Positions 17,118 to 55,213 of a stretch of DNA of 64,000 nucleotides are shown here, in pieces (the first letter of the stretch is position 1; every line of letters begins with the position of its first letter). A model generated the notes under the pieces. It saw nothing but the letters and a program-made list of their open reading frames with translations, searched no databases and had not been told where the DNA came from. This DNA comes from an uncultured Blautia sp. GTDB taxonomy: Bacteria > Bacillota > Clostridia > Lachnospirales > Lachnospiraceae. Location: assembly GCA_900549015.1 (NCBI GenBank), contig URMH01000001.1:87775-151774 (forward strand), written 5' to 3'. Position numbers and translations under genes: made by a program.

Positions 17118-17137
17118 TATAGCCGGAAAGAGGGGTG

Positions 17138-22086: not shown

Positions 22087-22110
22087 TCTTGATAAAGGAG
22101 GATAATATTG

Positions 22111-23136: not shown

Positions 23137-23147
23137 GGAGGTGCCAT

Positions 23148-24025: not shown

Positions 24026-24384
24026 TGTTCGGAAACGCAATGTACCTTCGTCCGGGAAATCTCTGGAAGAGCTTCCGGGTATTGAAGATGCATGTGGACA
24101 ATGTAGATGGATATGCAAAGAACTCATATGAAGATACGGGAACTATAGTGGATGGAATTCTTGCACAGGCGACTTCGAATGAGAGGGAGCTGACAAAACA
24201 CCTATGGGACCAGAAACTGCATTCCCTGACGCATACCCTTGTGGTATCTGGAAGATGTGATCTCAAAAAGTCAGATATTCTTGCATATGAGGAAAAAGCA
24301 TATTTAGTTCTTGCTGTTGATAATGCCGGAGACCTTGGGGTTGCCGGCATTGCTTATCTTGAAGAAAGGAATGATCTGAAATGA
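24022..24384 (+). CDS. putative head-tail adaptor/head closure protein
   Basis: ~120 aa gene in the connector block; RBS GAGGGGGAAG. Confidence 0.35.
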   Translation: MMFGNAMYLRPGNLWKSFRVLKMHVDNVDGYAKNSYEDTGTIVDGILAQATSNERELTKHLWDQKLHSLTHTLVVSGRCDLKKSDILAYEEKAYLVLAVDNAGDLGVAGIAYLEERNDLK

Positions 24385-31700: not shown

Positions 31701-34008
31701 TCAGAGGCAATCGGCAAAGGAAAGCGTACAGGCAGATGTTGAGCAGTGGTATTCAGAGCTTAACTCGATGGAATCAGCCGGAAGAATCACATCTGCTCAG
31801 AATAAGCAGTATCACGAAATGACTGGTTGGTATGTAAAAGGGCAGGAAGGAAGTGAGCTGTCGAAGAGCTTACAGCTTGGTTCGAACACTTTGAATTCTG
31901 CATATGCTGAGAAGATTCAGAGCAACAGGCAGAGCCTTGCGGAAAATACGCAGTTTTCTATTGATTCAGCACAGAAACAATTAGAGAGCGGAGATACATC
32001 CGCTATGACCAGCGCATTGATGTACGGGTTCAACGAACTTGGCAATGGAAAAACATTAGGAATTACAACTGATGCTACACAGAATGCCTTGAGTACCATG
32101 TATGAGAGCATGAAACCTGATGTAACACAGATGCAGGGCCTAATTGACGATTACCGGGAAGCGGGGAAAGCAGTTCCGCAAAGCCTTATGGATTCATTTA
32201 ATGATGCTATTGAGGTTGGAGCAGCTGCTGGCGATACGTCTGCAACATGGCAGAACTATGCTAATCAGATCTGGAAGAATGGAAGTGATGAATTAAAAGC
32301 ATCACTTACGGATCCGAGCAATCCAATGTATGAAACGGTCCGCAGTCAGTTGCCTCCTGAACTTGCAGAAGCGATTGACAGGGCGGCGGCAGAGACTACA
32401 ACTGAAGATGTGACACTTGAAGGACTGAAAGCTTCTGTTGATGGAGACGTTGATATTGACAAAGATGCATGGACTTCAAAGCTGAATGAAGCTCTTGGTG
32501 ACTTGGGTGAAACACAGGAGGTTACCGCTGATCATGTAAAGATTAAGGTTGATCAAGGCGATTGCCTATGGGAAATTGGCAACGCTCTTGGAATTGACTG
32601 GCAGACCATTGCAGAACAGAATGGCATCGAAAGCCCGTATGTTATTCACCCAGACCAGGAACTGACTATTTCCATGGATACGTTGACTGCAGAAGTTGAC
32701 GGAGACAAGGCTCAGGCTGCTATCGAGCAGGCTATGTCGGCTCTGAATGCAGAAGGAGCAGAAATGTCTGTGACAGCAGAAGGAGTCAAAGTTGATCTGG
32801 CAGATGTAGAAGTGGATTCCGATACAGCGGCGGCTCAGATTGAGGCAGCTCTCGGCATGGAATCCGGGACACTTGCGGCAAATGGAATTGAAGTGCAGGC
32901 AGGCGCATCTGTTACTATCCCATCAGAACTGGTAACGGTGGATACATCTGGCATGCAGTCTGCAACCGAACAGGCAGCAGATGAAACGGAAACAGAGCCT
33001 ATTGAGCAGGAAGCATCTGCAAATGTAAATGTCACAAATACAACGACCGACACCTCCGGAATGCAGGCACAGGCGGAAGAAGATGCAAAAGGTGCCGTAG
33101 GAGATGTACCAGTTGAAGGCAGTGCAAATGTTACCTTCTCAGGCACGACAACAGACACTTCTGGCGTTGTGGAGCAGGTAACAGCAGATATTGAGAGCGC
33201 AGTAAGTGATGTTCCGGCCAATGGTCATGCGAGCATCACGTTAGATCAGTCCAATAATGCGGCTGAGATTTATTCTCTCGCAACAGCTGATGTAGTATCT
33301 GCTTTCTCGGAGACAATTCCAGCAGACGGACATGTTGATGTCACACTTGACCAGACGAATAATGCGGCAGCTATTTACTCAGAATGTGCCGGACAGGTAC
33401 AAAGCACATTCTCACAGGGCTTCACTGCATCTGCAGATGTTGCGGTTACATTGAACTGGCATATTACGAATCCATCAGCTAGCATTTCCACATCAAGTAG
33501 CGGATCATCTGTATCAGCCACTATAGCCGGGCACGCTTCAGGCGGTGAAGTCGGATTGAATGGAGCTGAGCTGTCGTGGGTAGGTGAGGAAGGATTGGAA
33601 TATATCATTCCTACAGTGCCGGCCAGACGGCAGAGAGGTATTGAATTGTGGAAATCCGCAGGACGGACACTGGGAGTTCTTGGTCCTGATGATGAGATAT
33701 CAGCACATGCGAGCGGAGGAATCGTTGGCAAAGAAGTATCAAACACGATACCTTATTTCGACACAGATTCCAGTTCACAAGATTCTGAAAAAACAGAGAA
33801 AGAAACTGTGCCAACGAATGTAGTGTCAGACAAATCTGGCGTTGTGGTACAGGTTAACCTCTCCCCGCAGTTCAATATATCAGATACAAATGACAGTGAT
33901 GTTATTCGGCTCATCAAAGCGCATATCAAGGAGCTGGCTGACGATCTTGGAAGCGAAATTGCAACAATGCTCAGCGAAGCTTATGAGAATACGCCTGTTA
34001 CAACATAA
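28756..34008 (+). CDS. tail tape measure protein (TP901-family core, internal LysM domain)
   Basis: 1750 aa; core MGATTKFTATEAAQAFNYMAMAGW typical of the tape-measure core domain; LysM-like VKIKVDQGDCLWEIGNALGIDWQTIAEQNG at 32534-32670. Confidence 0.85.
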   Translation: MGETIRIEIPVSVNDNTDPGLSNITNKMNTLATAAQKVNRILSSGFKTRGIEQTAERVDRTLGREHSIEVSADDNATPVLSRVEDAAERVGGISADIEIGANDNATAEISGVEDAAATLDGASADVELGADDNATGVVNSVGDSLSVLNGNEAVVELTADDNATMQIMDVEDALAALNGEVAVASVEADDTATQIIRSAEDAVATFDGTSGTAELGADDNASPIIDDVMDKASAWDGSVFTATMSIVDAATAPMGAVLNAAKNPIAQGATFLGVSAGLADTVNTYKGFESMMSQVQAISGATGKEFDDLTAKAQEMGATTKFTATEAAQAFNYMAMAGWKPEQMTAGISGIMSLAAASGEDLASTSDIVTDALTAFGLKAKDAGHFSDVLAKASASSNTNVGMLGESFKYVAPVAGAMKYSVEDTSLALGLMANSSIKGSMAGTALKTSLANMAAPTNSMAEAMDKYGISLTDSSGNMKTLKGVMDNLRSSLGGLSETEQTAAASTIFGKEAMSGMLAIINASEQDYNDLSNAIGNSKDAAQDMADTMLDNLAGSMTLMQSAVEGVQNSFGQRLTPYVRGFVDSITDAMPAVTVALNDFMDTVDKKAAHMKTVIGTMTASDEWQNADMFGKMDIAWDTLIGQPFADWIGGDGKHLISSGLGTLFSSASAILPGGKKAGLSSVLSSMLIAKGATGILGNAKNIATTLQPIGNAIKSIGLAAQTAPSVGAFISDLGAMVPTAAKFGLAAAAVTAAVVGIGVAVDNYNQKALSSNLEEHFGNIKLSAQEVQDIASGILDQKYLANVEVALNEVKNADKLQEDAQKALESNDVLEFKSRVGIKLTTEEQEDYTSNIETFVKSKIEELESRTFAAHIHVQTYLGGTEEGQTLAQNIEKWATADYVELDGLSSQLSQKVSEALKDGIIDADEEGAISALQEKMNSITARWKESEAQAKWDWINQEYGSLNAADLESGSFTDLLGAMRDQRQSAKESVQADVEQWYSELNSMESAGRITSAQNKQYHEMTGWYVKGQEGSELSKSLQLGSNTLNSAYAEKIQSNRQSLAENTQFSIDSAQKQLESGDTSAMTSALMYGFNELGNGKTLGITTDATQNALSTMYESMKPDVTQMQGLIDDYREAGKAVPQSLMDSFNDAIEVGAAAGDTSATWQNYANQIWKNGSDELKASLTDPSNPMYETVRSQLPPELAEAIDRAAAETTTEDVTLEGLKASVDGDVDIDKDAWTSKLNEALGDLGETQEVTADHVKIKVDQGDCLWEIGNALGIDWQTIAEQNGIESPYVIHPDQELTISMDTLTAEVDGDKAQAAIEQAMSALNAEGAEMSVTAEGVKVDLADVEVDSDTAAAQIEAALGMESGTLAANGIEVQAGASVTIPSELVTVDTSGMQSATEQAADETETEPIEQEASANVNVTNTTTDTSGMQAQAEEDAKGAVGDVPVEGSANVTFSGTTTDTSGVVEQVTADIESAVSDVPANGHASITLDQSNNAAEIYSLATADVVSAFSETIPADGHVDVTLDQTNNAAAIYSECAGQVQSTFSQGFTASADVAVTLNWHITNPSASISTSSSGSSVSATIAGHASGGEVGLNGAELSWVGEEGLEYIIPTVPARRQRGIELWKSAGRTLGVLGPDDEISAHASGGIVGKEVSNTIPYFDTDSSSQDSEKTEKETVPTNVVSDKSGVVVQVNLSPQFNISDTNDSDVIRLIKAHIKELADDLGSEIATMLSEAYENTPVTT
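28957..29495 (+). repeat. six tandem ~87-nt (29-aa) coding repeats in the tape-measure N-terminal region
   Basis: Repeating A(D/N)DNAT..I..VEDA.A.L.G..A.VEL units read from the translation. Confidence 0.6.
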
Positions 34009-36367: not shown

Positions 36368-36829
36368 ATGGAAGAAGAATCAAAAAATTTACTGCCGACT
36401 GTGGATGTTCCAGATTTTGTGGATGAGGAGGAAGACGAAGAATATGACGTTGACTATAAACCATCGCCAATGTGGGATCTTGAAAAAGGAGATTTTGTTC
36501 GCACCGCCGCAAATAATGTGCCAATGAACGATGGATATGAAGCATATAAAATATGGTGTGTAAAAACGGTATCTACAGAAAGATATTCTTGCCTGGGATA
36601 TTCGGATGATCATGGAACTGAAACGGAAGATATAACAAGAGAATCTGACCAAAGCACTGTAGAACTTTCTCTAGAAAGGACAATCCAGGAAGCTCTGATG
36701 GTCAATCCGCGAACATCATCGGTAGAAGAGTTTTCTTTTGAATGGGGTACTGGGAGGGTAAAAGTATCATTCATAGTTTATTCAGTTGATGGAGAACCTT
36801 TTACCGTTGATTCAATCATTGAAGTTTAG
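36368..36829 (+). CDS. XkdS-like / gp25-like baseplate protein
   Basis: Position before the baseplate J gene; size 153 aa. Confidence 0.4.
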   Translation: MEEESKNLLPTVDVPDFVDEEEDEEYDVDYKPSPMWDLEKGDFVRTAANNVPMNDGYEAYKIWCVKTVSTERYSCLGYSDDHGTETEDITRESDQSTVELSLERTIQEALMVNPRTSSVEEFSFEWGTGRVKVSFIVYSVDGEPFTVDSIIEV

Positions 36830-36843
36830 AGGAGGTGGTTAAT

Positions 36844-37983
36844 ATGGCTAGACCAGAGTTTGAAGTTCCGGAATTTGTGTCAGAAAGTGATTCTGACCAG
36901 ATACAGGAGAGGATGATGGGGAACCTTCCGGCGGATATATCGGATATGGAAGGTGATTTCCCATATGATTTTACCATGCCTACGGCCATCGAAATATCTC
37001 AGCTTGTACAGTTCAATCTTGTTCGCTGCCTGATGGTTGCGTTTCCGGAATATTCTTGGGGCGATTGGATGGATCTGCATGGTGGAGAAGCAGGAGTGAC
37101 AAGAAAAGAAGCTGTAGCAGCAACTGGAACAGTGTCTGTTACGGCGGCTTATGGCACAGTATTGGCAGCAGGCACAGTTTTTGCAGTTCCTGCAACAGAT
37201 CAGATGGAAGCTGTTGAATTCCAGACTTTGCGAACTGTTACGTTCGCAGAGAATGAAACCATGGATCTTGCGGTTGAAGCGGTCATTCCTGGAGTATCTG
37301 GGAATGTTCCGGCAAATACGATTACAATTATGGCATCACCGATCAATGGCGTTACAGCGATTACCAACAGCGAGAAAACTTCGGGCGGTGCCGAAGAAGA
37401 AAACGATGAAGATTATTACGAAAGAATCCATGCTGAATTCCAAGATTCGCAGTTCTATGTCGCGAATGATGCTGACTATATTAAGTGGGCCAAAGAAGTT
37501 CCCGGGATTGGAGATTGTATTGTAGAACCAGCTGTTGAAGGACCTGGAACAGTGGGACTGATCTTAGTTGATAGCAACGGACAGCCCGCATCAAGTACAT
37601 TGGTCACAGCAGTTTACAACCACATCGTTTCTCCGAACGACAGGAGCAAAAGACTGTTGCCTACTGGATCGTCTAAGCTGATTGTCAAGTCAGCTACAGT
37701 AAAAACTGTAGATTTTGCCTGTACAGGACTTGTTCTGGATGGCGTTGGATTGGATGATGTAATCTCGACATTCAAAACTGAAATGATGGCAGTCTATTCT
37801 GCGGCGAAAGAAACAAATATCCTTCGCTACAATTCAGCTCGAACAGTATTGTCAACCATAACCGGAGTAAGCGATTTCATAGATTTTACGATGGATGGAA
37901 AGAGAGAAAACATTCACCTTTCATCAAGCGAGTATGCAGATACCGGTAATGTGACATTTACATTAGAGGGGGCTGAGACATGA
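36844..37983 (+). CDS. baseplate J-like protein (XkdT-like)
   Basis: 380 aa; N-terminal region resembles the Baseplate_J family; gene order. Confidence 0.6.
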   Translation: MARPEFEVPEFVSESDSDQIQERMMGNLPADISDMEGDFPYDFTMPTAIEISQLVQFNLVRCLMVAFPEYSWGDWMDLHGGEAGVTRKEAVAATGTVSVTAAYGTVLAAGTVFAVPATDQMEAVEFQTLRTVTFAENETMDLAVEAVIPGVSGNVPANTITIMASPINGVTAITNSEKTSGGAEEENDEDYYERIHAEFQDSQFYVANDADYIKWAKEVPGIGDCIVEPAVEGPGTVGLILVDSNGQPASSTLVTAVYNHIVSPNDRSKRLLPTGSSKLIVKSATVKTVDFACTGLVLDGVGLDDVISTFKTEMMAVYSAAKETNILRYNSARTVLSTITGVSDFIDFTMDGKRENIHLSSSEYADTGNVTFTLEGAET

Positions 37984-39188
37984 GTATAGATCTGGAAAGA
38001 TTCCCATGGAGCGATTCGGCCAACAGAATGCTGACATATGTAACTAAAGGCTGGTATGATAAATCCTATGTCGGAAAATGGATATACGAAGTTATGGGCA
38101 GAGAGCTTGATCTGGCCACTGTGCATATTGAAGAACTTCCATACCAGATGTTTATCGATACAGCTACATGGGGGCTTAAATATCATGAGATCAAGTATGG
38201 ATTGCCCGTAAGAGAGGACCTGTCATATGAAGAAAGACGACGGCTGCTCCGTGAAAAGAAAAACACAAAAGCACCAATGACCCCATGGCGAATGGAACAG
38301 ATTTTAAAAGGCGTGACGGATTATGATGTCCAGGTTCATGATTGTAATGAGCCTGGATATTATTTTTCTCACCCTAACATATTCAGCGTTCAATTGGAAG
38401 GTGAAACAGAGGTAGAACTAGGAGAAGTTAAGAGTAAAGTCGATAAGCTGAAACAATCACACACAGTATATCTTCTTTCTGTTATCCTCATGCTTATTGA
38501 ATGCACAGAGAGCTTTGAACAGAGAGTGACGTATCATTCAGATTTTTCATGGTGGAAGTATTCTCTTGATGGCTCCTTCGCTCTTGACGGCAGTATCAAT
38601 CTGAATCATTGGTATCCGACAGAATTTCGCCCAGTCTATCCATTCGATACAGTCTTAACTGAGAATTTTATAGCAGATCGAATTTTTCACCGGATTCCAG
38701 ATGTATATCATGAAAATATATTTAAGCCTTCCTTTTTCGTACGAAGTGATTTTGTATGGTGGGAAGGTTTTCTTGATGGAAACTTTTCACTGGACGGAAC
38801 GAGAAAGCTCAATTCTTGGTATCCGATGGAAACTTTTATCGGGCATAGGCTGTTTATCGGCAATCAGGAGGCTTTTGAAACGAAACAGTGTATTTCATTG
38901 CCTGATATGATTAATGCTGAGAAAGCTGATTTTAGAGGCACACAGAGGGTAATTATGGGCTGGCGTGATGGTAATAAGATTCTGGACGGCAACTGTTTGT
39001 TAGACGGGACTTTATTGCTTGATGCAGGAGAGCCGCCATATCTGCAGACAGTTCGGATTCGTGCGCCTGTTAAACATGAAGAAGAAGTAGAGGTCACAAT
39101 GGTTATTCCTTCACGGGCCGCAAGACTGGATGGAACGTGTAGGCTAGATGGAAGCGTAAAACTAAATTCAGGAAGGGAGGTCCTTTAA
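37980..39188 (+). CDS. XkdU-like (DUF2313) tail protein with four C-terminal LDGxxxLDG repeats
   Basis: N-terminal 180 aa resemble DUF2313/XkdU; C-terminal units LDGSFALDGSINLNHWYP / LDGNFSLDGTRKLNSWYP / LDGNCLLDGTLLLDAG / LDGTCRLDGSVKLNSG. Confidence 0.5.
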   Translation: MSIDLERFPWSDSANRMLTYVTKGWYDKSYVGKWIYEVMGRELDLATVHIEELPYQMFIDTATWGLKYHEIKYGLPVREDLSYEERRRLLREKKNTKAPMTPWRMEQILKGVTDYDVQVHDCNEPGYYFSHPNIFSVQLEGETEVELGEVKSKVDKLKQSHTVYLLSVILMLIECTESFEQRVTYHSDFSWWKYSLDGSFALDGSINLNHWYPTEFRPVYPFDTVLTENFIADRIFHRIPDVYHENIFKPSFFVRSDFVWWEGFLDGNFSLDGTRKLNSWYPMETFIGHRLFIGNQEAFETKQCISLPDMINAEKADFRGTQRVIMGWRDGNKILDGNCLLDGTLLLDAGEPPYLQTVRIRAPVKHEEEVEVTMVIPSRAARLDGTCRLDGSVKLNSGREVL

Positions 39189-39569
39189 ATGGCAGGGACT
39201 ACAGTTACAACACTGGCTAAGAAAAAAATGGTAAAAGCAAGAGCGGGGATTTCATCGCTCCCAAAGATTGTAGGCATGGCTTTTGGCGATGGAGGTGTAG
39301 ATTCGGGCGGAACAGTAAAACCACACAGTGCCGATCAGAACACCTTACATCATGAATTGCTTCGCAAGAACGTTGATGGTTATGAGGTTCTTTCTGATAC
39401 AAAAATCAGATATCGCTGCACACTGGCAGAAAATGAGCTGGCAAACACTTATATTTCTGAAGTTGGGTTATATGATGCAGATGGGGATATGGTGGCCATG
39501 AAAGCGTTTCTGAAGAAAGGAAAGGATGCAGACATGGAATGCGTGTTCGAGTGTGATGATACATTCTAA
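39189..39569 (+). CDS. phage tail-collar fibre N-terminal domain protein (DUF3751-like)
   Basis: IVGMAFGDGGVDSGG...P....T.LHHEL matches the tail-collar fibre family signature MAFGDGG. Confidence 0.5.
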   Translation: MAGTTVTTLAKKKMVKARAGISSLPKIVGMAFGDGGVDSGGTVKPHSADQNTLHHELLRKNVDGYEVLSDTKIRYRCTLAENELANTYISEVGLYDADGDMVAMKAFLKKGKDADMECVFECDDTF

Positions 39570-39637
39570 CGTATTTCGATATTTTGTAACAAGTAATCGG
39601 ATAATGATAGATAAATGTTATCATAAGGAGGTAGAAA

Positions 39638-41314
39638 ATGTCGTATTTCGATATTTCTGGAGCTGTTTTCAACAATCAGCTCCGCGAATTAGAAACTTCT
39701 GATCCTGCTCATGCAGATGTGTTTAACGCTGTCTTTCGACAGTTGATAAATAATGATGTGGCACTTATGGAAGCCGCCAGTATGTTTGCGGGAGAAAAAA
39801 ACAAACAGGCTGAATTCATTCTTAATCTCAAGAGAACTGGAAAAAAATATGGGGTCCATCATAGTGCATTTGATGTATCGCCATTGTCGGCGGGCACACG
39901 TACTCTCGATGCTGTAGGCATGGTAGCACAGCCTTCTACGAACACAGTAAGAGGAAGAAATGATTTTGAAGGCGAATCTGTTTTTTATGGATTGGAAGTT
40001 AATGGTCATGTAGATGATGCCGGAGAATTCATTGTGGAATATATTAAGGGAATCGACAATGAGTTCTCCAGGACAGAAAGAGATACATGGATGTTGTATC
40101 TGACTCAGTGGATTAACATAACCATTGATGCAAATGGAGAAAGCCTTGTTATCTCAGATGAACATCACGCAGGCTTCTTTCCGGAAGGAGCAGCAATCCG
40201 TACAGATCAGACTGTCAGACCGTTCGTTGCACAGGCTAAATATATGGCCGGAAATGGTTCTGATGGAAAGGCTGCATCTATTAGCGGAGTAAACGCTGCG
40301 CATGATCAGTCTCACAATGGAATGATTACACGATTCAAAGCCAAAGGAACACAGTATTGTGGAACAACTGCACAGGATAAAAACCATATGGACAACCTGT
40401 TTGAGGTCGCTTTCGCAACACGGAATTCACAGTCAATCATGTCTGGTTGCACAGGATATTACAACAGGTTCTATGCGACTGTTGTTGAAAATAATGTGGA
40501 ACGTATCATTATCAGCAAAAGTGATGCAAACTATTTGGTGGTCGGAAGCACGGTATCCATTGGAAATGCCACAGCTTTAAGTGGTAGCAATCCGACGGAT
40601 GATAGAGCAAATGCAGGACTTCATGCAAAAGCAAATCGTGTCATCATTACAAAAATTGAAGATTATGACAGCAATAATTCTGCAGTTTATGTAGATAATG
40701 GAGGAACTAAATTTTCTACCGGTTCTACAATGGTAGGCTCTACAGAAGTAAAGACCACTATCGTTACAATGCCATGGCACACAGGTGCATGCGATAATGT
40801 CCTTGGTTCTTGCGGTTCTCCGAACAGTAATACATCTGGAAAAGACCCATACATTCTGTTCGGTGTAGAAATGTTCCTGGGATTTTACGAAGTTATCAGC
40901 AATGTAATTCTTAAGATATCTAATCATGTAATGACGGCTTGCATTTGTTATGACTGCACAAAGTTAGCAACAAGTGTGACCTCGGATTATGTTGAGTGTG
41001 GATATAGCATTGCAGATACGCAGGCAAGTTGGAAATACATCAGTGAACTTGGCTATGATCCAGAGAACCCATCTGTAAGACATGGAACGAAAGTGGCAGC
41101 ATCATCCAGTACCGGATATGCAGATGGACAGTACACCGACAAGCTTGATCAGACTTCTGACGGGTTAAGAGAGTGGCTTTCCGGCGGCACCCTGTACGGC
41201 GGGTCTGTCGCGGGCCGGTGGTGTGCGGCCCTGGACGGCGGGCTCGGTTACAGCTGGTGGAACTATGCCGCGCGTCTTTCTGCTTCTGGACGCTGTGCGA
41301 AAGCAGCAGCGTAG
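39638..41314 (+). CDS. tail fibre / receptor-binding protein; DGR variable protein (C-terminal VR, C-type-lectin-like fold predicted)
   Basis: 558 aa after the collar-fibre gene; last ~45 codons are the VR that matches the downstream TR except at TR adenines. Confidence 0.7.
   Translation: MSYFDISGAVFNNQLRELETSDPAHADVFNAVFRQLINNDVALMEAASMFAGEKNKQAEFILNLKRTGKKYGVHHSAFDVSPLSAGTRTLDAVGMVAQPSTNTVRGRNDFEGESVFYGLEVNGHVDDAGEFIVEYIKGIDNEFSRTERDTWMLYLTQWINITIDANGESLVISDEHHAGFFPEGAAIRTDQTVRPFVAQAKYMAGNGSDGKAASISGVNAAHDQSHNGMITRFKAKGTQYCGTTAQDKNHMDNLFEVAFATRNSQSIMSGCTGYYNRFYATVVENNVERIIISKSDANYLVVGSTVSIGNATALSGSNPTDDRANAGLHAKANRVIITKIEDYDSNNSAVYVDNGGTKFSTGSTMVGSTEVKTTIVTMPWHTGACDNVLGSCGSPNSNTSGKDPYILFGVEMFLGFYEVISNVILKISNHVMTACICYDCTKLATSVTSDYVECGYSIADTQASWKYISELGYDPENPSVRHGTKVAASSSTGYADGQYTDKLDQTSDGLREWLSGGTLYGGSVAGRWCAALDGGLGYSWWNYAARLSASGRCAKAAA
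41172..41282 (+). repeat. DGR variable repeat (VR), 111 bp
   Basis: Aligns base for base with 41411-41521; 15 differences, all at positions where TR has A. Confidence 0.8.
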
Positions 41315-41338
41315 GGGGTGAATTGCCGAATGGCAAGA

Positions 41339-41356
41339 GGGGAGCTCCCCTTTTAT
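41339..41356 (+). terminator. GGGGAGCTCCCC palindrome plus TTTT after the fibre gene
   Basis: Perfect palindrome followed by T-run. Confidence 0.4.
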
Positions 41357-41410
41357 TTCCCGGCGTAGCCGGGGCGTTTTAAAATCATACGGACTCACGC
41401 TACGTTTGGC

Positions 41411-41521
41411 AGTGGCTTTCCGGCGGCAACCTGAACAACGGGTCTAACGCGGGCCGGTGGTATGCGAACCTGAACAACGGGCTCGGTAACAGCTGGTGGA
41501 ACTATGCCGCGCGAATTTCTG
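41411..41521 (+). repeat. DGR template repeat (TR), 111 bp, non-coding, Asn-codon (AAC) rich in the VR frame
   Basis: In the VR frame it reads GGNLNNGSNAGRWYANLNNGLGNSWWNYAAR. Confidence 0.8.
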
Positions 41522-41716
41522 TGAGAATTTTGATGTGTAGCGTGTTTCGCTGTCCTTTGAGACAGCCCTAAAATGGCGGGGGCGGAATGCCCGAAATTCA
41601 AGCACCAGCATCGGCGGTCAGGAAACTGACTGCTGACCCTGTGGCGGAAGTGGACACAGGTGGGGGTTAGTAGTAAAACCGAAAGCTCTTGAACACAGAA
41701 AGAAAGAGGACTGGTA

Positions 41717-43072
41717 ATGAAGACATATTGCCGAAGAATGGATATTTCTGGCGAAAATTTCATCAGGAAATACATAGCTGCATTTATATATGACAAGCTA
41801 GAAAATGGTAATATGCCGAGTATTTTTGCTTACTATGGAAGCATAAGTAAAAATGAGGCTAGAAGGCGGTTGGAGAATTCGCCGGAATTTGTAGCATCTG
41901 TGATCGATCAGATTGCGTATGAAATGTCGTGGCATTTGAAGACCAGAACTGTAAGGGAACATATCTATATGGTAGTTCCGGAAGAGAAACTTGTGAAAAA
42001 TGTTGATATAGTAGATGGAATGAGCGGAAAAATTAGAACGCTAGGACTTGAAAAGATGATCATGCAGCTATATGAGGTGTTGGCCAAGGAAGCGGCAGAT
42101 GAGTTGTGGACGGCAAAAGTCGGACTTTTTCAAGTTGCATCAATACCTGGAAGAGGACAAGCTTACGGCAAAAAATACATCGAACGATGGATGTCGCGTG
42201 ATCCGGAAGGAACTAAATATTGCGTTCAGTCAGATATAAAAAAATGCTATCCCTCTATGTCACATGATAAAATATTAGAATTTCTTCGAAGAGATTTAGG
42301 AAAGTCAGATATGTTGTTGTACTTGTTTGAGACTTTGATTGGATTGTATTCTGAAGCAAAGGTGCAGAATAAAGAGAAAGATTGCAAACATGGGATTTTT
42401 ATAGGCTCTCCGGTGTCGAAAGATCTGTGCAATTATTATCTATCTTATTTGTACCATTATTGCACAAATGAACTTTATGAAATGAAGACCAGACGAGGGA
42501 AGACAACAAGAAAAAGATTGATTTATCATATCATGATTCAGATGGATGATATCATTCTTTTTGGCTCTAATAAGAAAGATCTTCATAAGGCAATGCTGCT
42601 TGTTATTGAATTCGTAAAATCTACACTCTGTCTAAAGATCAAAGATTCCTGGTCGTTATTTCGTACAGGTTATGTTGACAGAAACGGAAAACAAAAAGGA
42701 AGGGATTTAGACTATATGGGGCTTGTGTTCCATGGACAGAATTTAATCAAAAGATGTTATTCCGGAAAAACAGTGACAATACGGAATGTGTCAACAAGGA
42801 TAAGAGCATCAATATTCCTAAAGGCTCGCAGGAAAATTCATAGATTTGCGAAAAAAATAAAGAACAAAAAGATTATAGGTAGTAAATTCGCCATGAGTAC
42901 CATAGCATATAACGGTTGGTTTGTAACAACAGACTCCTTTCTTGTGAGGGTTGCAGAATGTTGGGATCAACTTATTTCGATGGCTAAAAATATAATCAGC
43001 CGTTATGCGAAACAGAAAAGCTATGCTATGGAAAAATATTATAAGAAGTGGAGGAAATTGAATTATGCATAA
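41717..43072 (+). CDS. DGR reverse transcriptase
   Basis: RT motif 2 QSDIKKCYPSMSHDKILEFL, motif-4-like GIFIGSPVSKDLCNYYL, and motif 5 region HIMIQMDDIILFG with QMDD in place of YxDD; RBS AGAGGA. Confidence 0.75.
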   Translation: MKTYCRRMDISGENFIRKYIAAFIYDKLENGNMPSIFAYYGSISKNEARRRLENSPEFVASVIDQIAYEMSWHLKTRTVREHIYMVVPEEKLVKNVDIVDGMSGKIRTLGLEKMIMQLYEVLAKEAADELWTAKVGLFQVASIPGRGQAYGKKYIERWMSRDPEGTKYCVQSDIKKCYPSMSHDKILEFLRRDLGKSDMLLYLFETLIGLYSEAKVQNKEKDCKHGIFIGSPVSKDLCNYYLSYLYHYCTNELYEMKTRRGKTTRKRLIYHIMIQMDDIILFGSNKKDLHKAMLLVIEFVKSTLCLKIKDSWSLFRTGYVDRNGKQKGRDLDYMGLVFHGQNLIKRCYSGKTVTIRNVSTRIRASIFLKARRKIHRFAKKIKNKKIIGSKFAMSTIAYNGWFVTTDSFLVRVAECWDQLISMAKNIISRYAKQKSYAMEKYYKKWRKLNYA

Positions 43073-43754
43073 AACGAATAGCCCGGAATCACAAGGAAAC
43101 ATTACATATGCTGTTCTCCCAGATGGTTCCGCTGATGTATGGATTCGTAAGAACGAAGTCCAGCTTCCGGAAAAAGATGAAGGACCACAGGGTATGGAAG
43201 CAGATGAAATCTATTTTAAGGTTACAGTGTCCACCGCAACAAAAGAAGAAATATCTGCAGACATTGACTTCTGGTTCGACCAGTTAAAAGAGAAGGAGGA
43301 AGGTCTGAACGCAGATTATCTTTCTATTGAAACTTATCGTGCAAATAAGAAGAAAGAGATTTCGCAGATTTGCCAGAGTACAGTATTTGCAGGGGTGGAC
43401 ATTTCTATTTCTTCAGGAACAGAACATTTCAGCTTAAAAGATGAAGATCAGCTAAATCTCTTTGGAAAACAGGCTCAGCTGACCGCTGGCATCAAAAAAC
43501 TGGAATACCATGAAGACGGCAATCCGTGCCGGTATTATTCTGCTGAGGATATGCAGAAGATTATTAATGGTGCAATGGAATTCAAAAGCTATCACACAAC
43601 CTATGCGAATTCACTGAACATGTGGATCAAAGGCTGCTCCAAAGCTTCGGAAATCGCCAAGATTGAATACGGAGCACCGATCCCGGAAGAATATCAGTCC
43701 GAAGTTTTAAAGGACTATCTGGCCGAAATGGCAGCCGACAAGGAGGTTAAATGA
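43065..43754 (+). CDS. hypothetical acidic protein translationally coupled to the RT
   Basis: Start overlaps the RT stop by 8 nt; 229 aa, no recognised motif. Confidence 0.4.
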   Translation: MHKTNSPESQGNITYAVLPDGSADVWIRKNEVQLPEKDEGPQGMEADEIYFKVTVSTATKEEISADIDFWFDQLKEKEEGLNADYLSIETYRANKKKEISQICQSTVFAGVDISISSGTEHFSLKDEDQLNLFGKQAQLTAGIKKLEYHEDGNPCRYYSAEDMQKIINGAMEFKSYHTTYANSLNMWIKGCSKASEIAKIEYGAPIPEEYQSEVLKDYLAEMAADKEVK

Positions 43755-44176
43755 ATACTCTGAAGACCATAGGCAGAAACGCTGTGCTTTTCGCTATAGG
43801 AGGTACGATTTACTACATGATCGAACTGATATGGCGAGGGTACAGTTCGCTGCCTATGGTACTGGTTGGAGGGCTTTGCTTCTTGTTTTGTGGTTCGATA
43901 AATGAATTTCTAGGATGGGATATGCTCATATGGAAACAGATGTTTATCTGTGCTGTCGGGATAACTGCAATTGAGTTCCTTTCCGGATACATTTTGAATA
44001 TTGTATTGGGGCTTGGGATATGGGATTACAGCAATATGCCTTTTAATATAATTGGACAGATATGTCTTCCTTTTACTGTGGCATGGTATATCCTATCTCT
44101 ATTAGCTATTGTATTGGATGATCATCTGAGGTATTGGATATTTGGTGAAGAAAAACCAAGATACAAGTGGAGGTAA
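43751..44176 (+). CDS. four-helix integral membrane protein (possibly CmpB/DUF1113-like; lysis-module associated)
   Basis: Four hydrophobic segments; ATGA overlap with the upstream gene. Confidence 0.4.
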   Translation: MNTLKTIGRNAVLFAIGGTIYYMIELIWRGYSSLPMVLVGGLCFLFCGSINEFLGWDMLIWKQMFICAVGITAIEFLSGYILNIVLGLGIWDYSNMPFNIIGQICLPFTVAWYILSLLAIVLDDHLRYWIFGEEKPRYKWR

Positions 44177-44181
44177 CGACG

Positions 44182-44403
44182 ATGGATGAAAACCAGGTTT
44201 TAGAACTTGTGGAATTCTATGAAGATATGATTGAAAAGCAGGATGAAATCATAGTGAGGCAGAGCAGGTTCATCAAGAGCCTGGCAACCGAACTTTCTCA
44301 TTTGCGAAATATGTTGAATGTAGAAGCGAGCGAAGATGAAAGACTTGACGCAGGGATTATTGAAGAAGTAAAGGAAGAGTATGTAAGCATGAGGGAACCG
44401 TAG
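44182..44403 (+). CDS. hypothetical acidic small protein
   Basis: RBS GGAGGT 6 nt before ATG 44182. Confidence 0.35.
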   Translation: MDENQVLELVEFYEDMIEKQDEIIVRQSRFIKSLATELSHLRNMLNVEASEDERLDAGIIEEVKEEYVSMREP

Positions 44404-44417
44404 AGGTTCCCTTTTTT
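44393..44417 (+). terminator. intrinsic terminator (GGGAACC GTAGA GGTTCCC TTTTTT)
   Basis: 7-bp perfect stem and T6. Confidence 0.6.
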
Positions 44418-44576
44418 CATGGAGGTAAGGTATGGTGCATGCGAGAGATAGACCTTTTAGGCGCAACACATTGGCATCTATTAATGGCGAAAGGAGGTTC
44501 TTATGCGAAAACTGGTGGATTGGTTAATCGGAGGTAATCTGGATCGGCTCTTAAAAGCACTCGGAGGGGAAGAGTA

Positions 44577-44900
44577 ATGCTCGAAACATTTTGTCTATCT
44601 GTGCTTGGCAGCGGAGGTGTTGCCGGCATTTTTTTTGCTCTGATTCGTCACTATATTGAGCGAAGGCTCATGGAAGTGGAGGCACGAGAGCAGGAACGCA
44701 TTAAGTATAAAATTGAACAGAGAAAAGCGGATGAAGAAATTACACATGCTACGGGGCGCGTGCTCTTTTGGCTACATCATGCAATTGTAAAAGGAGAGCA
44801 TAATGGCGAGCTCGAAGAAGCATTTGAAAATCTTCAGCGTGCAGAAGCACACAAAAAAGAAATGGACAGAGAAGTTCTGGCCAAATACAGCATTGATTAG
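44577..44900 (+). CDS. membrane-anchored coiled-coil protein (holin-associated or lysis regulator?)
   Basis: N-terminal transmembrane helix then a charged coiled coil; RBS GGGGAAGAG. Confidence 0.35.
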   Translation: MLETFCLSVLGSGGVAGIFFALIRHYIERRLMEVEAREQERIKYKIEQRKADEEITHATGRVLFWLHHAIVKGEHNGELEEAFENLQRAEAHKKEMDREVLAKYSID

Positions 44901-44912
44901 GAGGAATTACTT

Positions 44913-45272
44913 ATGGAATTACTTAACTTTTTAAAACAGATTCCGTTCCCGGTATTACTGGTTGCGGTGTTAATTTTGCTTGTAGTGACTTTGGTTATTG
45001 CGTTTCAGTATGCCAAGCATAAAGGATTGGAAGGTATCCGTGAACAGGTATACCAGCTGATCCTGAAAGCGGAACATATGTATAAAGAATCAGGAACGGG
45101 ACAGCAGAAATTGAAATGGGTTGTTCAGCAGGCGAGAGGATTACTGCCAAAGTGGCTACAGGTTATTATGTCGGAAGATGCGCTGCTTAAGATAATTGAT
45201 GTGTGGTTTTGCGGCGTGAAAGATCTTTTAGACGATGGAAAAATTAATGGTTCACAGAAGGAAGGGGCTTAA
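44913..45272 (+). CDS. putative holin (LL-H-like)
   Basis: N-terminal transmembrane helix, size 119 aa, immediately upstream of the endolysin gene; RBS AGGAGGAA. Confidence 0.45.
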   Translation: MELLNFLKQIPFPVLLVAVLILLVVTLVIAFQYAKHKGLEGIREQVYQLILKAEHMYKESGTGQQKLKWVVQQARGLLPKWLQVIMSEDALLKIIDVWFCGVKDLLDDGKINGSQKEGA

Positions 45273-45298
45273 GCCCTTTCCTTTTTTAGGGGGATATT

Positions 45299-46747
45299 AT
45301 GAAAACGAATATAATGGGAACTGCAGTTGCTACGGTCCAGCAGATGCAGTCATATATACAGAAAGTTAATCCGGCAGTACCTAAATCCGTAATCGATATG
45401 GTTGAATATTATATATCAGAAGGAAAAACGGAAGGAGTAAGGGGAGATATCGCCTTTGCGCAAAGTTGCCTCGAAACAGGTAATTTCACATTCAATGGTT
45501 CTGCCGTAACATTGGACCAGAACAATTTTGCCGGAATCGGCGTTACAAAAAATGGTATGAAAGGGAATTCGTTCTCTCATCCATGGATCGGCATCCGGGC
45601 ACAGATCCAGCATCTTAAAGCATATGCATCTAACGAAAAACTGTACGGTGTATGCGTGGATCCTCGTTTCTGTTATGTGAAAAGAGGAATAGCCCCATAT
45701 GTTGAATGGCTTGGGATACAGGAAAATCCACAGGGCGGAGGCTGGGCCGCAGGGAAGAATTATGGATCAAAGATATTGGAAATTCTGGCGAAGATAATTG
45801 CGATGCCAGAAGCGAATAAGGAGGATGTTACAATGAATCTTAACACAAGTTTAATCAGCAATAACAACAGCTATGCAAATCAGGTACCTAAATACATCGT
45901 TATCCATAATACAGATAACTTTGCCAAAGGAGCAAATGCAAAGGCACATGCAAAGGCCCAGCATGACGGAAATTTCTCCGGCTACTCTGCTCATGTATAC
46001 GTTGATGATACCGAGGCTTATCAGGCAACTCCATTCGACAGAGGCGCTTGGCATGTCGGCGTTAACTACGGAGGTGGTCTTTTCGGAATTTGCAACAACC
46101 ACAATTCCATTGGCATTGAGATGTGTGTGCAGGCAGGGTATAATTACGAAAAAGCGTTCCAGAACACTGTTGAGATCTGCAAGATGCTGATGAAGAAGTT
46201 TGGAATTGACGCAAATCATGTGGTATCCCACTATGATGTGTGTGCGAAGAATTGCCCTTCTGCAATCCGGGCAAAAGGTGACTGGAACCGTTTCAAGCAG
46301 CTGATCGGTGCAAAGACGGCAGCTACAACTGTAGATAAATATTACAGAATCCGGAAAACCTGGGGCGACAGTAAGAGTCAGATCGGAGCGTACAAAAATC
46401 TTGAAAACGCAAAGAAAAACTGGAAAGAAGGTTACACAATCTTCGATTGGAACGGAAAAGCCGTATATCCAGAACAGAAAAAAGACACTTCATCAAGCGA
46501 AACAAAAGTTAGCCTGACCGAGAAATTAAATATTCAGCTTCCAGTGCTGCAGTCCGGAGCAGAAGGTTCGGCAGTACGTTGCCTGCAGGCAATACTCGGA
46601 GTTGCCGTTGATGGAGATTTTGGAAAGAATACCAAGACGGCACTTAAAACATTCCAGAAGAATGTCGGCATCGATGATGATGGTTGCTGTGGCCAGAATA
46701 CATGGAAGAAAATTGCTGACCACATGAATGCAAATACATTCAAATAA
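45299..46747 (+). CDS. endolysin: N-terminal glucosaminidase, central N-acetylmuramoyl-L-alanine amidase (Amidase_2), C-terminal PG_binding_1
   Basis: IAFAQSCLETGNF (glucosaminidase), SAHVYVDD..AWHVG..NHNSIGIEMC (Amidase_2/PGRP), LQSGAEGSAVRCLQAILGVAVDGDFGKNTKTAL (peptidoglycan-binding domain). Confidence 0.75.
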   Translation: MKTNIMGTAVATVQQMQSYIQKVNPAVPKSVIDMVEYYISEGKTEGVRGDIAFAQSCLETGNFTFNGSAVTLDQNNFAGIGVTKNGMKGNSFSHPWIGIRAQIQHLKAYASNEKLYGVCVDPRFCYVKRGIAPYVEWLGIQENPQGGGWAAGKNYGSKILEILAKIIAMPEANKEDVTMNLNTSLISNNNSYANQVPKYIVIHNTDNFAKGANAKAHAKAQHDGNFSGYSAHVYVDDTEAYQATPFDRGAWHVGVNYGGGLFGICNNHNSIGIEMCVQAGYNYEKAFQNTVEICKMLMKKFGIDANHVVSHYDVCAKNCPSAIRAKGDWNRFKQLIGAKTAATTVDKYYRIRKTWGDSKSQIGAYKNLENAKKNWKEGYTIFDWNGKAVYPEQKKDTSSSETKVSLTEKLNIQLPVLQSGAEGSAVRCLQAILGVAVDGDFGKNTKTALKTFQKNVGIDDDGCCGQNTWKKIADHMNANTFK

Positions 46748-47208: not shown

Positions 47209-47652
47209 TTATTTCACTTCTTTTAAATTATAATCCAATGAATCGTACAAATAATCTGTATCAAATCCCATATCTTTGTAACCTTGCAATACAGTTTTAA
47301 CATAACGGCTAGATGGCCTTCCCACAGTGGCTGAGTCAGGCAGGAGGTATATCATAGCCTTTTTCCTAGTGCCGTTTTTTAATTGTACAAATACATTTCT
47401 CTTTTTATAAAATCTCGGATATCCCTCGTACAGATCAAGAGCCTTCTCATTTTTGCTATCGATATTCCAAACAGCAACAGGAACCCTACTTCCTTTTTGC
47501 CTTTTGACGGTTGCATAAGATCCTGTGTGGCTTCCTCTGTAAAGCAATTTCCAATTTATCAGATATCCGGTAAATGCGACTGTCGCTCCAGGACAACGGT
47601 ATGACATTTGCTGTACGTTAAGATTACTTCCGTATGCTACATATAAACTCAT
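47209..47652 (-). CDS. gamma-glutamyl cyclotransferase-like (AIG2/GGCT fold) protein
   Basis: N-terminus MSLYVAYGSNLN..R.PG matches the YGSN-type GGCT signature; RBS GGGGAGAAAGGAAA on the minus strand. Confidence 0.6.
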   Translation of the reverse strand: MSLYVAYGSNLNVQQMSYRCPGATVAFTGYLINWKLLYRGSHTGSYATVKRQKGSRVPVAVWNIDSKNEKALDLYEGYPRFYKKRNVFVQLKNGTRKKAMIYLLPDSATVGRPSSRYVKTVLQGYKDMGFDTDYLYDSLDYNLKEVK

Positions 47653-47699
47653 GGTATTTCCTTTCTCCCCGTAAAGCCGTTAGGTCAGCCGATTTGTGA

Positions 47700-48626
47700 T
47701 TAAGCTACATGTTCTGCATTTGCATTCTCACGAAGCTGTTTCATCATGTGAAGTCTGCATGTTTTGAACTCATCACCATAAAGTCCAAGTCTGTTTGTGA
47801 GGATATTATACATTAAAGTGACTTTTTTCTTTGCTGTGTATCCGTTCATGGTTCTGAATACGACTTTATCATCAGATTCGATGGACCATGCAGAGAGTGC
47901 TAAACAAAACTGTACATATGCTTTGATCTTTCCTGCATGAAGAGTGCTGTTAAAAAGTCTGAATTCGACAGTTCCTTTCTGGAAGAAGCTATGAAGATTC
48001 AATGCGTGGTATCTTGTAGAGTTATAATGCTGATGATTGATTCCACCACAGTAGCCATCGTTTGCTGGGCTGTACCAAATTTTCTCAACGGAATCGGTTG
48101 TGATGTTTTTGTCTTTTTTCATGGTATCAAGTAAATTCTTGCAAACTGGCTGACACCAACGATATTTTCTGTCACCTACTGCAAGCGCATCGTAAATGAT
48201 TTCCTGTCTGCTATACATGAAATTTACCAGACGGCGAAGAGAAGTTGCGGTATGGTTCGCTCCGTCTACATGAATATGGATTCCGCATGAACTGTGAGGA
48301 ACTCCACCGATTTCTCTGAATTTACGGATGATTGCCTGCAGTGTATCAAGATCTTCGTATTTAAGAACCGGTGTTACGAATTCAACTCTGTATTCGTCCA
48401 TGTTCTCGGTTCCAACTTTACGAATTGGATGAATTGAGCTGTCTCGCATTACCTTCCATTTTCTTCCCTGTGAATCCTGAATGGTTCTTGTCTGATAGCA
48501 GGTGTGATCTGGTCTGGAAGCTGTAGTTCCGATGATTTCTGCAACTGCATCAGCAGCCATCTTTCTTGAAATACCTGTAAATTCAACCTCAACACCGTAG
48601 TTCTGTTTCTTTAAAAGTTCTGACAT
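47700..48626 (-). CDS. putative amidoligase (Amidoligase_2, glutamine-synthetase/GCS2-like fold)
   Basis: YGVEVEFTGISRK...RKWKVMRDSS...VEFVTPVLKYEDL...SSCGIHIHVD matches the Amidoligase_2 family core; RBS AGGAGGAAAA. Confidence 0.7.
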   Translation of the reverse strand: MSELLKKQNYGVEVEFTGISRKMAADAVAEIIGTTASRPDHTCYQTRTIQDSQGRKWKVMRDSSIHPIRKVGTENMDEYRVEFVTPVLKYEDLDTLQAIIRKFREIGGVPHSSCGIHIHVDGANHTATSLRRLVNFMYSRQEIIYDALAVGDRKYRWCQPVCKNLLDTMKKDKNITTDSVEKIWYSPANDGYCGGINHQHYNSTRYHALNLHSFFQKGTVEFRLFNSTLHAGKIKAYVQFCLALSAWSIESDDKVVFRTMNGYTAKKKVTLMYNILTNRLGLYGDEFKTCRLHMMKQLRENANAEHVA

Positions 48627-52092: not shown

Positions 52093-53157
52093 ATGAAAGC
52101 GGAAAAAGATAAGAAAACCGGGAAATGGTTGATTCAGTATCGTTATACGGATTGGCAGGGAAAACGCCGGAAATCCACTAAAAGAGGTTTTGCGACCAAA
52201 AGAGAGGCGGAGGAATGGCTTCGAAATTTCCTTATTACGCAAAAAGCGGACTTTGATATGAAGTTTGAGGATTTTTGGAAGATGTACTGTGCAGATATGG
52301 AGACTCGCCTGCGGGAGCATACCATGAGAACGAAAAAGTATATCGTGGAGCTGAAAATTCTCCCGTATTTCGGGAATAAGCGGGTAAATGACATTACTGC
52401 AGCTGACATCCGTCAATGGCAGAATGAATTGATTAAAATGGGCTATTCACCCACTTATCTGAAAACAATCAATAATCAGTTGAGCGCAATCTTTAATTAT
52501 GCGGTTCGATATTACGATTTGAAAAGTAATCCCTGTGCAAAAGCCGGAAGTATGGGTAAGAGCAAGGCAGAAGAAATGGATTTCTGGACAGGAGAGGAAT
52601 TTAGGAAGTTTATCGATAGTGTCATGAACAAAAGACTTTCTTATATGGCATTTATGACCTTGTACTGGACGGGGATGCGTATGGGAGAGCTTCTGGCTCT
52701 GAATCCGAAAGATGTAGATCTTGAAAAGAGAACAATTTCTATCACAAAATCATATCAACGTCTTGGCAAGAAAGATGTGATCACTCCACCAAAGACACCG
52801 AAAAGCAAGAGAGTGATTACCATTCCAGAGTTTCTGGCTGCAGATATCAAAGATTATATGGACAGCTTATATGAGTTGCAGGAGAACGACAGGTTGTTTC
52901 CCATTACAAAATATTATCTGGAGCATGAAATGCAGAGAGGAATTAAAGAAAGTGGAGTAAAGCGGATAAGGGTACACGATTTGAGGCATTCCCATGCAAG
53001 TATGTTGATTGAACTGGGATTTTCACCGTTGGAGATTGCGAATCGGCTTGGACATGAAAAAGTGGAAACTACGCTGAATACCTACGCGCATCTTTATCCA
53101 AACAAACAGACAAAACTGGCTGAACGGCTGGACAGTGAATACAGGGAGGATTTGTAA
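52093..53157 (+). CDS. int: tyrosine site-specific integrase
   Basis: IRVHDLRHSHASMLIELG and LNTYAHLY catalytic region; N-terminal SAM-like DNA-binding domain. Confidence 0.8.
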   Translation: MKAEKDKKTGKWLIQYRYTDWQGKRRKSTKRGFATKREAEEWLRNFLITQKADFDMKFEDFWKMYCADMETRLREHTMRTKKYIVELKILPYFGNKRVNDITAADIRQWQNELIKMGYSPTYLKTINNQLSAIFNYAVRYYDLKSNPCAKAGSMGKSKAEEMDFWTGEEFRKFIDSVMNKRLSYMAFMTLYWTGMRMGELLALNPKDVDLEKRTISITKSYQRLGKKDVITPPKTPKSKRVITIPEFLAADIKDYMDSLYELQENDRLFPITKYYLEHEMQRGIKESGVKRIRVHDLRHSHASMLIELGFSPLEIANRLGHEKVETTLNTYAHLYPNKQTKLAERLDSEYREDL

Positions 53158-55099: not shown

Positions 55100-55190
55100 C
55101 GAAAGTGCTTTTGCGTTACTTTTGACAAAAGTAACAAAACCACCTTGACGGGCACGAATACATTTTATGTGCCGTATCCGGCACTGTTTA
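55100..55190 (+). promoter_or_regulatory. candidate oriT: perfect 10-bp inverted repeat GTTACTTTTG/CAAAAGTAAC (55115-55135) and nested hairpins GGCAC..GTGCCG TATC CGGCAC (55151-55184)
   Basis: Inverted repeats immediately upstream of the MobV relaxase gene. Confidence 0.4.
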
Positions 55191-55213
55191 GAGAATGTGA
55201 GGTGAAAAATAGG

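Follow-up and report, generated by a model that had tools for sequence, protein, structure and literature searches.

Diversity-generating retroelements (DGRs) are, as far as known, the main means by which proteins are hypermutated in a targeted way in nature, and no habitat is richer in them than the human gut. Here a DGR was analysed in a stretch of 64,000 nucleotides from an uncultured Blautia sp. (GenBank assembly GCA_900549015.1, contig URMH01000001.1, forward-strand positions 87,775 to 151,774), hereafter the window, in which position 1 is the first letter. The element, all features of which lie on the plus strand, consists of a target gene (39638-41314) that ends in a variable repeat (VR, 41172-41282), a non-coding template repeat (TR, 41411-41521) and a reverse transcriptase (RT) gene (41717-43072). 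From the evidence presented below, it is almost certainly a functional, compact DGR of the order target-TR-RT, devoid of an accessory gene and located in the tail module of a prophage.

With the DGR of phage BPP-1 (mtd-avd-TR-brt) the window element shares TR-to-VR differences that are adenine-specific and lie at the 3' end of a gene for a tail fibre (a presumed one in the window), an AAC-rich TR, a homologous RT in which the BPP-1 residues R74 and I181 are conserved, the distinction between the initiation of mutagenic homing sequence closing the VR (IMH) and its TR counterpart (IMH*), and a GC-rich hairpin with a GAAA loop just past the VR (PMC3240598). The BPP-1 ribonucleoprotein resolved by cryo-electron microscopy is also alike in that pairing between upstream and downstream RNA brackets the TR and is followed by a structured spacer; this duplex was named 'cPRT Stop' and was surveyed among Avd-containing DGRs only (bioRxiv 10.1101/2023.10.23.563531). 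In contrast to BPP-1, the window element is without avd, and its RT is 451 aa rather than 328 aa long, has extra residues inserted between its N-terminal helix and motif 1 as well as an extended C-terminus, and carries QMDD and IGxxxSK motifs; an extra invariant module (GGGGTGAAT...AGAGGGG) is present past the VR. Also unlike BPP-1, the element belongs to a myovirus-like phage of a Gram-positive gut anaerobe, and no sequence similarity was detectable between the target and Mtd.

Closer counterparts are found among DGRs lacking accessory genes. According to Wu et al. 2018 (PMC5758913), avd is present in 74% of catalogued DGRs, so that an accessory gene is not universal, and both an accessory-less 'Architecture A' and an avd-lacking 'Lineage 3' were described, for which an Avd-independent variant of retrohoming was proposed. 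The window element has in common with these the TR-RT core, the adjacent upstream target and the missing accessory gene, and its architecture is therefore a known type; the same text, as far as available, mentions neither an RNA scaffold nor a module following the VR. Among characterised phages, the record of hankyphage (Bacteroides phage p00) annotates VR, TR and RT in the order seen in the window, likewise with no avd, and tblastn identified related RTs in p00, Faecalibacterium phage FP_Epona, Butyrivibrio phage Arawn and crAss-like phages. Homologues of both target and RT were present in the uncultured gut phages MT836575, MT835469, MT835485, MT839517 and MT835477. The phages p00, FP_Epona, Arawn and these five records are of gut origin and have the RT in a tail module (tblastn E 3e-6 to 2e-47), as in the window, although the RT is just 25-33% identical and the target 28-43%, and no DNA-level match was obtained in a collection of 50,697 phage genomes.

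Template and variable repeats

In a base-by-base comparison, VR and TR were collinear and gapless over 111 positions at an offset of 239, with homology stopping sharply at both edges. The repeats differ at 15 positions, at each of which the TR base is A, the TR-to-VR substitutions reading C, T, G, G, G, T, G, G, C, G, G, G, T, T, C. Given the 24 adenines of the TR, the chance of 15 out of 15 random mismatches landing on adenines is 9.6e-13. The TR pattern with N at each adenine occurred at two sites only in the window, the VR and the TR themselves, and in none of 100 shuffles, so that no second VR was found in the window with this adenine-masked search. The VR is in frame within the last 47 codons of the target open reading frame (ORF), and the TR translated in the same frame gives WLSGGNLNNGSNAGRWYANLNNGLGNSWWNYAAR. 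The RT ORF starts 195 nt past the TR end, and no conserved ORF covers the TR or this spacer on either strand. A 133-aa minus-strand ORF over TR and spacer (41395-41796) was rejected as a gene, its stop-free length ranging between 51 and 128 aa in relatives.

The 3' end of the VR (41266-41282) is an IMH-like, GC-rich segment, GCCGCGCG TC TTTCTG, that is invariant across all VR copies compared (see below), and the last 17 nt of the TR form the corresponding IMH*, ending in GCCGCGCG AA TTTCTG. The two differ solely at 41275-41276, where the VR has TC against AA in the TR. Since these two mismatches are identical in all 10 VR copies, they represent a fixed IMH/IMH* difference, by which target and donor are distinguished, and not products of mutagenesis, and a fixed C-against-A difference also occurs at the equivalent position in distant relatives. 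The number of hypermutation-type differences in this VR copy is thus 13. The initial annotation, made from the letters alone, had reported the base-for-base repeat alignment, its 15 adenine-only mismatches and their order, all of which were reproduced; its attribution of all 15 to adenine mutagenesis holds for 13 sites and has to be withdrawn for 41275-41276, which are fixed in every copy. The mutagenised span (41189-41265) holds 12 variable codons, corresponding to target residues 518-543, that are AAC (nine), TAT (two) or AGC (one) in the TR. Substitution of the adenines in these codons cannot yield a stop codon and makes about 2.5e12 protein variants reachable.

Natural variation of the VR

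Variation was assessed in 11 loci with an essentially identical RT, eight of them viral contigs from IMG/VR and three from genome assemblies (under the titles Eubacterium sp. UBA3279, Lachnospiraceae bacterium MGYG-HGUT-00092 and Ruminococcus sp. UNK.MGS-30), whose flanks share 97-98.5% identity with the window. Nine of the 11 include the VR and, together with the window, gave 10 VR copies from independent metagenomes and genomes, among which eight different VRs were present. Variation affected 21 of the 24 VR columns facing a TR adenine, all of them within the mutagenised span, as opposed to 3 of the 87 other columns. Across the copies, the adenine was kept in 35% of cells at these sites and replaced by G in 27%, T in 24% and C in 14%, while non-adenine sites were changed in 0.7%. 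The TR was constant in the 11 loci except for one G/T polymorphism at 41440. The presence of eight VRs in backgrounds diverged by about 2%, with 65% of TR-adenine cells substituted versus 0.7% elsewhere, therefore indicates many recent and independent rewriting events. The VR thus bears the signature of repeated, recent adenine-directed rewriting from a constant template, and the DGR is active in nature at the level of differences between samples.

A contrast between RT and target was apparent in a collection of 15 billion proteins, where the exact RT sequence was found on at least 1000 contigs and the exact target sequence on six, and where clustering at 90% gave 3377 members for the target versus 841 for the RT. 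All 15 sampled targets were different, with the differences concentrated at residues 518-543.

The polymorphism at TR position 30 (41440 in the window, facing 41201 in the VR) exchanges Gly GGG for Trp TGG. Locus L010 has T in both TR and VR and L007, a locus that stops short of the VR, has T in its TR. In L001, L004 and L006 the VR carries T and the TR carries G; the codon is Trp in 11 of the 15 sampled targets. This pattern suggests either that the TR allele was replaced once homing had last taken place or that phages recombined with one another.

Reverse transcriptase

The 451-aa RT matches Pfam RVT_1 and phrog_1423. DGR RTs carry the signature [I/V/L]GxxxSQ, in place of QGxxxSP in group II intron and retroviral RTs. 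In the window RT this motif reads I229-G-S-P-V-S-K235, the diagnostic first residue being I and the last K instead of Q, and the catalytic motif is QMDD. A profile of the RT family could be aligned by hhalign to that of BPP-1 Brt along 272 columns (probability 98.7%, E 2.7e-16). A sequence search of the PDB with the RT gave no match. Residues R74 and I181 of Brt were shown to promote adenine misincorporation (PMC7826257); their equivalents in the window RT, R107 and I229, are invariant in the RT family.

The QMDD box was kept in all 15 sampled members of the RT cluster. In the wider clade, which numbers about 425 representatives at 50% identity (E up to 1e-10), the catalytic box of 110 full-length representatives was YxDD in 66, FxDD in 19 and QxDD in 6. 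In the 103 classifiable representatives (at 50% identity), the first residue of the signature was always I, V or L and never Q, and 72 had the SQ ending. Members with QxDD and FxDD also carry adenine-specific TR/VR pairs. The two departures from the usual motifs are therefore probably tolerated variants within a DGR-type clade.

Gene order in related loci

Only 96 nt separate the target stop codon from the TR, leaving no room for an accessory gene, and no Pfam match to an accessory family (Avd, HRDC, MSL or CH1) was obtained among the 36 window ORFs scanned. The corresponding distance is 54-174 nt in relatives. A profile search of IMG/VR returned 80 loci, of which 66 with RT identities of 32-56% were analysed as distant relatives. 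The compact layout with a TR/VR pair of at least 100 nt and adenine-specific mismatches was found in 54 of the 66, the remainder being mostly loci without upstream sequence. The spacing was 100-200 nt between VR and TR and 175-270 nt between TR and RT.

Two loci deviated from the mismatch pattern. In L070 (3189-3291 and 2936-3038) the TR has an adenine at only 2 of 12 TR/VR mismatches, and in L086 the TR itself bears VR-like substitutions; both may be decayed or reverse-converted elements. An ORF of about 20 aa starting from TTG at 41323, just after the GGGGTGAAT box, was considered as a mini accessory protein and rejected, neither reading frames nor peptides being conserved among relatives.

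Conserved elements downstream of the VR

A GC-rich hairpin, ACGCUG-UGC-GAAA-GCA-G-CAGCGU (41290-41312), begins 7 nt past the VR and is a putative target-recognition hairpin of the BPP-1 type. Its stem of 9 bp contains one bulge and is capped by GAAA, pairing is 75% by column count, and hairpins with different stem sequences are predicted at the same spot in clade-A relatives. It agrees with the consensus for the target hairpin of phage DGRs, a GC stem of 7-10 bp with a GRNA loop located 4-34 bp after the VR (PMC3240598).

Cross-relative conservation further defined an invariant module (41315-41350) composed of GGGGTGAAT, a hairpin (41323-41336), AGAGGGG, four unspecified nucleotides and CCCC. 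Its 9 + 7 invariant bases are kept among relatives with RTs 34-100% identical, making the module more conserved than the proteins, and this holds whether it lies past the stop codon, as in the clade of the window, or within the last target codons, as in a more distant clade. The module hairpin is 93% paired, with compensatory changes in three of its four pairs. The module is present as a single copy in the window. Scanning IMG/VR for its 16 specified bases returned 118 loci, 72 of which have a downstream RT of this family on the same strand, and an adenine-specific TR/VR pair was found in 71 module-bearing loci. In these 71 its distance is 12-60 nt (median 19) from the VR end, which it follows, and 25-288 nt (median 57) from the TR, which it precedes. 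The module is thus tied more tightly to the VR than to the TR, which suggests a role in target recognition; from this conservation and placement, such a role is put forward as a hypothesis, and the module appears to mark this DGR lineage.

A terminator-like hairpin, CCCGGC-GUA-GCCGGG followed by GCGUUUU, was read from the sequence at 41359-41380 as a putative terminator; a consensus terminator scan did not flag it.

RNA structure around the TR

Between this hairpin and the TR, an A/T-rich, -10-like box (TAAAAT) and a GGACU motif (41391-41395) occupy 41380-41395 and could correspond to the start of the TR RNA. In 22 of 23 aligned relatives the nearly invariant GGACU has an A/T-rich box in front of it. 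Judged from this conservation, the two may constitute a promoter and transcription start or, alternatively, a protein-binding site of the TR RNA. GGACU (columns 39-43 of alignment A8) sits directly 5' of a long-range duplex that brackets the TR.

The 5' arm of this duplex (CACGCUACGU, 41396-41405) pairs with the 3' arm (GUGUAGCGUG, 41535-41544), which always abuts a conserved UUUCG, and the TR is therefore enclosed in a closed loop. Changes on both sides were seen in 9 of the 10 pairs across 23 relatives, and 89.8% of cells were paired as compared with 15-49% when the partner was slid. A per-locus shuffle test gave a weak signal alone, and column-wise covariation was used instead.

Downstream of the duplex, a structured RNA domain fills the spacer (41545-41701). 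It was modelled on an alignment of 24 distinct TR-RT spacers with conserved blocks, using controls in which partners were shifted by 1-3 columns. The covariation model comprises 39 pairs in seven helices, namely a closing UUUC/GAAA helix (41545-48 with 41698-701) and six hairpins (41549-66, 41567-76, 41580-92, 41611-36, 41638-60 and 41662-90). Pairing was supported in 86.8% of cells versus 38-49% in the slid controls, with compensatory changes at 32 of the 39 pairs. The loop of the last hairpin, UAGUAGUAAAACCGAAA (41668-41684), is nearly invariant in the spacer alignment and may serve in RT binding or priming, for instance. Scanning 39000-44000 against Rfam returned only two chance-level matches, to eukaryotic RNAs, and the spacer domain matched no family.

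Proposed mechanism and alternative explanations

In the mechanism proposed for this element, an RNA of approximately 41391-41701 would be made, holding the TR within the 8-10 bp long-range duplex and continuing into the seven-helix 3' domain. The RT encoded next to it, presumably independent of a helper protein, would bind this scaffold and copy the TR into cDNA, faithfully at C, G and U and with misincorporation opposite adenine. The cDNA would then take the place of its homologue in the target gene, the VR at the 3' end, with the IMH (41266-41282) as the 3' limit; as the IMH differs from IMH* at two fixed bases, the TR itself would never be overwritten. The GC-rich hairpin with the GAAA loop would mark the target, probably along with the GGGGTGAAT-hairpin-AGAGGGG module. 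As a result, 12 codons within the C-terminal 41 residues of the presumed receptor-binding fibre would be randomised over some 2.5e12 stop-free variants, which would let the phage population follow changing surface receptors of the host.

The initial annotation had proposed a DGR that diversifies the C-terminus of the target gene, and this interpretation is borne out by the adenine-only mismatch pattern, the homology of the RT to Brt, the canonical hairpin past the VR and, most strongly, the population variation. Its placement of an RT gene (41717-43072) after a structured spacer of about 195 nt agrees with the RVT_1 match, the 195-nt gap and the covariation-supported helices. Non-adenine TR/VR mismatches, an RT outside the DGR clades and an invariant VR had been named as findings that would speak against a DGR; none was found, the mismatches being confined to TR adenines, the RT being homologous to BPP-1 Brt by profile comparison, and the VR differing among near-identical copies while the TR stays constant.

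Several observations nevertheless weigh against a functional DGR acting on a tail fibre. The RT motifs are off the canonical form, with QMDD for YxDD and IGxxxSK for [I/V/L]GxxxSQ; no accessory gene was found in the 36 ORFs scanned, though Avd is essential in the BPP-1 prototype; three non-adenine VR columns vary too, including TR position 30, where some loci have T in the VR and G in their own TR; variation was seen between samples only, so that the differences could in principle be old; and the tail-fibre function of the target is a presumed one and its C-type-lectin fold was not confirmed by the models. Some of these points can be taken as signs of a decayed or dormant DGR, in which the repeat pattern records past activity, the RT is non-functional on account of QMDD and the missing Avd, and the VR differences are inherited alleles. 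The exchange of the catalytic-loop tyrosine for glutamine and of SQ for SK, the lack of an identified accessory protein and the restriction of known VR variation to comparisons between samples would all accord with dormancy, but the same QMDD is retained by 15 of 15 sampled members, at least 1000 contigs carry an intact RT ORF, and clade members with QxDD or FxDD have adenine-specific TR/VR pairs as well. Dormancy is moreover difficult to reconcile with the eight VRs in backgrounds only about 2% diverged and the 65% versus 0.7% of cells substituted, and Avd-less DGRs are a recognised class (Wu et al., PMC5758913). Dormancy is therefore considered very unlikely.

Still less credence is given to a fibre tip made hypervariable by recombination or allele shuffling under diversifying selection, with the repeat and the RT unrelated to it. 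Such a process would not limit variation to the adenines of a separate non-coding copy nor keep that copy invariant, every variable codon is AAC, TAT or AGC in the TR, and the VR-TR-RT linkage is kept in at least 54 distant loci, even if phage fibre genes are mosaic and the downstream gene at 43065-43754 has an ordinary allelic block. An RT from another retroelement or defence system (group II intron, retron or Abi/DRT) beside a coincidental duplication was also weighed, as the best NCBIfam matches were to group II intron RT/maturase (TIGR04416) and Drt3a, and one JGI relative is labelled 'retron-type'. Both matches fall far under their cut-offs (48.7 bits versus 300 and 22.1 bits versus 200), however, and no group II intron or retron RNA family was detected at E up to 1 in the Rfam scan of 39000-44000. 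The RT motif begins with I and not with Q as in group II and retroviral RTs, its nearest characterised relatives in phages are RTs of DGRs, such as that of hankyphage p00 with its annotated TR and VR, the neighbours of the RT are tail and lysis genes with no companion effector context, and the mismatch pattern would arise by chance with a probability of about 1e-12. The probability of this explanation is next to negligible, and a functional, adenine-directed DGR is retained as the interpretation of the locus.

Implications

The element is a very abundant new example of the accessory-less DGRs of gut phages, and is neither a new kind of system nor a surprise to a specialist. What is new are the RNA scaffold with its covariation support, the duplex that brackets the TR in a lineage without Avd and the invariant module past the VR, all three of which are absent from Rfam and of which no description was found in the literature searched. 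In public records, the RT is labelled 'reverse transcriptase domain-containing protein' and the target 'hypothetical protein'. Recognition of the DGR accounts for the splitting of the fibre gene into thousands of sequence variants and pinpoints the residues that probably contact the host receptor. It also provides a well-sampled natural case of an accessory-less DGR type whose mechanism is unstudied, with the RNA scaffold and the module as testable handles on priming, stopping and target finding in minimal DGRs; knowledge of these would be useful for DGR-based mutagenesis tools.

A more far-reaching proposal, offered tentatively and thought to be rather unlikely, is that the RT clade forms a self-sufficient two-component DGR lineage, with an enlarged RT and a dedicated RNA scaffold replacing Avd, the scaffold being made up of the duplex around the TR, the seven-helix 3' domain and the UAGUAGUAAAACCGAAA loop, and with the GGGGTGAAT-hairpin-AGAGGGG-N4-CCCC module next to the IMH as an undescribed, sequence-specific signal for target recognition. 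If true, this would be the simplest DGR in nature and would make an attractive chassis for programmable hypermutation.

Target protein and prophage context

The 558-aa product of the target gene is presumed to be the distal tail fibre or receptor-binding protein of the prophage. Its only family match was to phrog_17147 (function unknown; E 1.7e-232), with no match in Pfam or NCBIfam, and the presumption of a tail fibre comes from synteny and neighbours, the gene directly following those for Baseplate_J, a Mu gp48-like protein and a 126-aa tail-collar-fibre N-terminal protein. The C-type-lectin-like fold anticipated for its C-terminus could not be confirmed by structure models and fold search. 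An AlphaFold model of the full 558 aa from a shallow alignment reached a predicted local distance difference test (pLDDT) score of no more than 38.9, and a C-terminal model from a 54-sequence alignment was confident at residues 68-166 only, a fold search with the model being uninformative. By eye, the VR pattern GGxLxxGSxAGRW...WWxxAAR resembles FGGAWNGTSLSGSRAALW...FFGARG of Mtd, a likeness that serves as a lead and not as a test.

The prophage is of the myovirus type, with a Mu-like portal and baseplate, in a Blautia/Lachnospiraceae host from the human gut. Its genes include those for the Mu-like portal (17135-18520), the sheath (26140-27549), the tape measure (28756-34008), the sheath initiator, Baseplate_J and gp48-like protein (36368-39188) and the tail-collar-fibre N-terminal protein (39189-39569) upstream of the DGR, and a DUF4376 fibre-like protein (43065-43754) and the lysis genes (43751-46747) downstream of it. 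Within the DUF4376 gene, the segment 43220-43320 (residues 53-87) is strongly divergent from the 11 near-identical loci, which agree mutually; it was rejected as a second hypervariable site, being a single alternative allele that is not adenine-directed.

Inside the head-tail module, three minus-strand ORFs at 21694-24350 (492, 148 and 188 aa) without a Pfam match have the look of morons. Beyond the lysis module, also on the minus strand (47209-48626), an Amidoligase_2 protein (308 aa, E 5e-60) adjoins a gamma-glutamyl cyclotransferase/AIG2-like protein (147 aa), a pair typical of phage or conflict-system cargo. No tRNA gene was found in the window. Right of the prophage lie a tyrosine integrase that has an Arm DNA-binding domain (52093-53157) and a Mob_Pre relaxase (55145-56608), which may be part of a second, mobilisable element distinct from the DGR phage.

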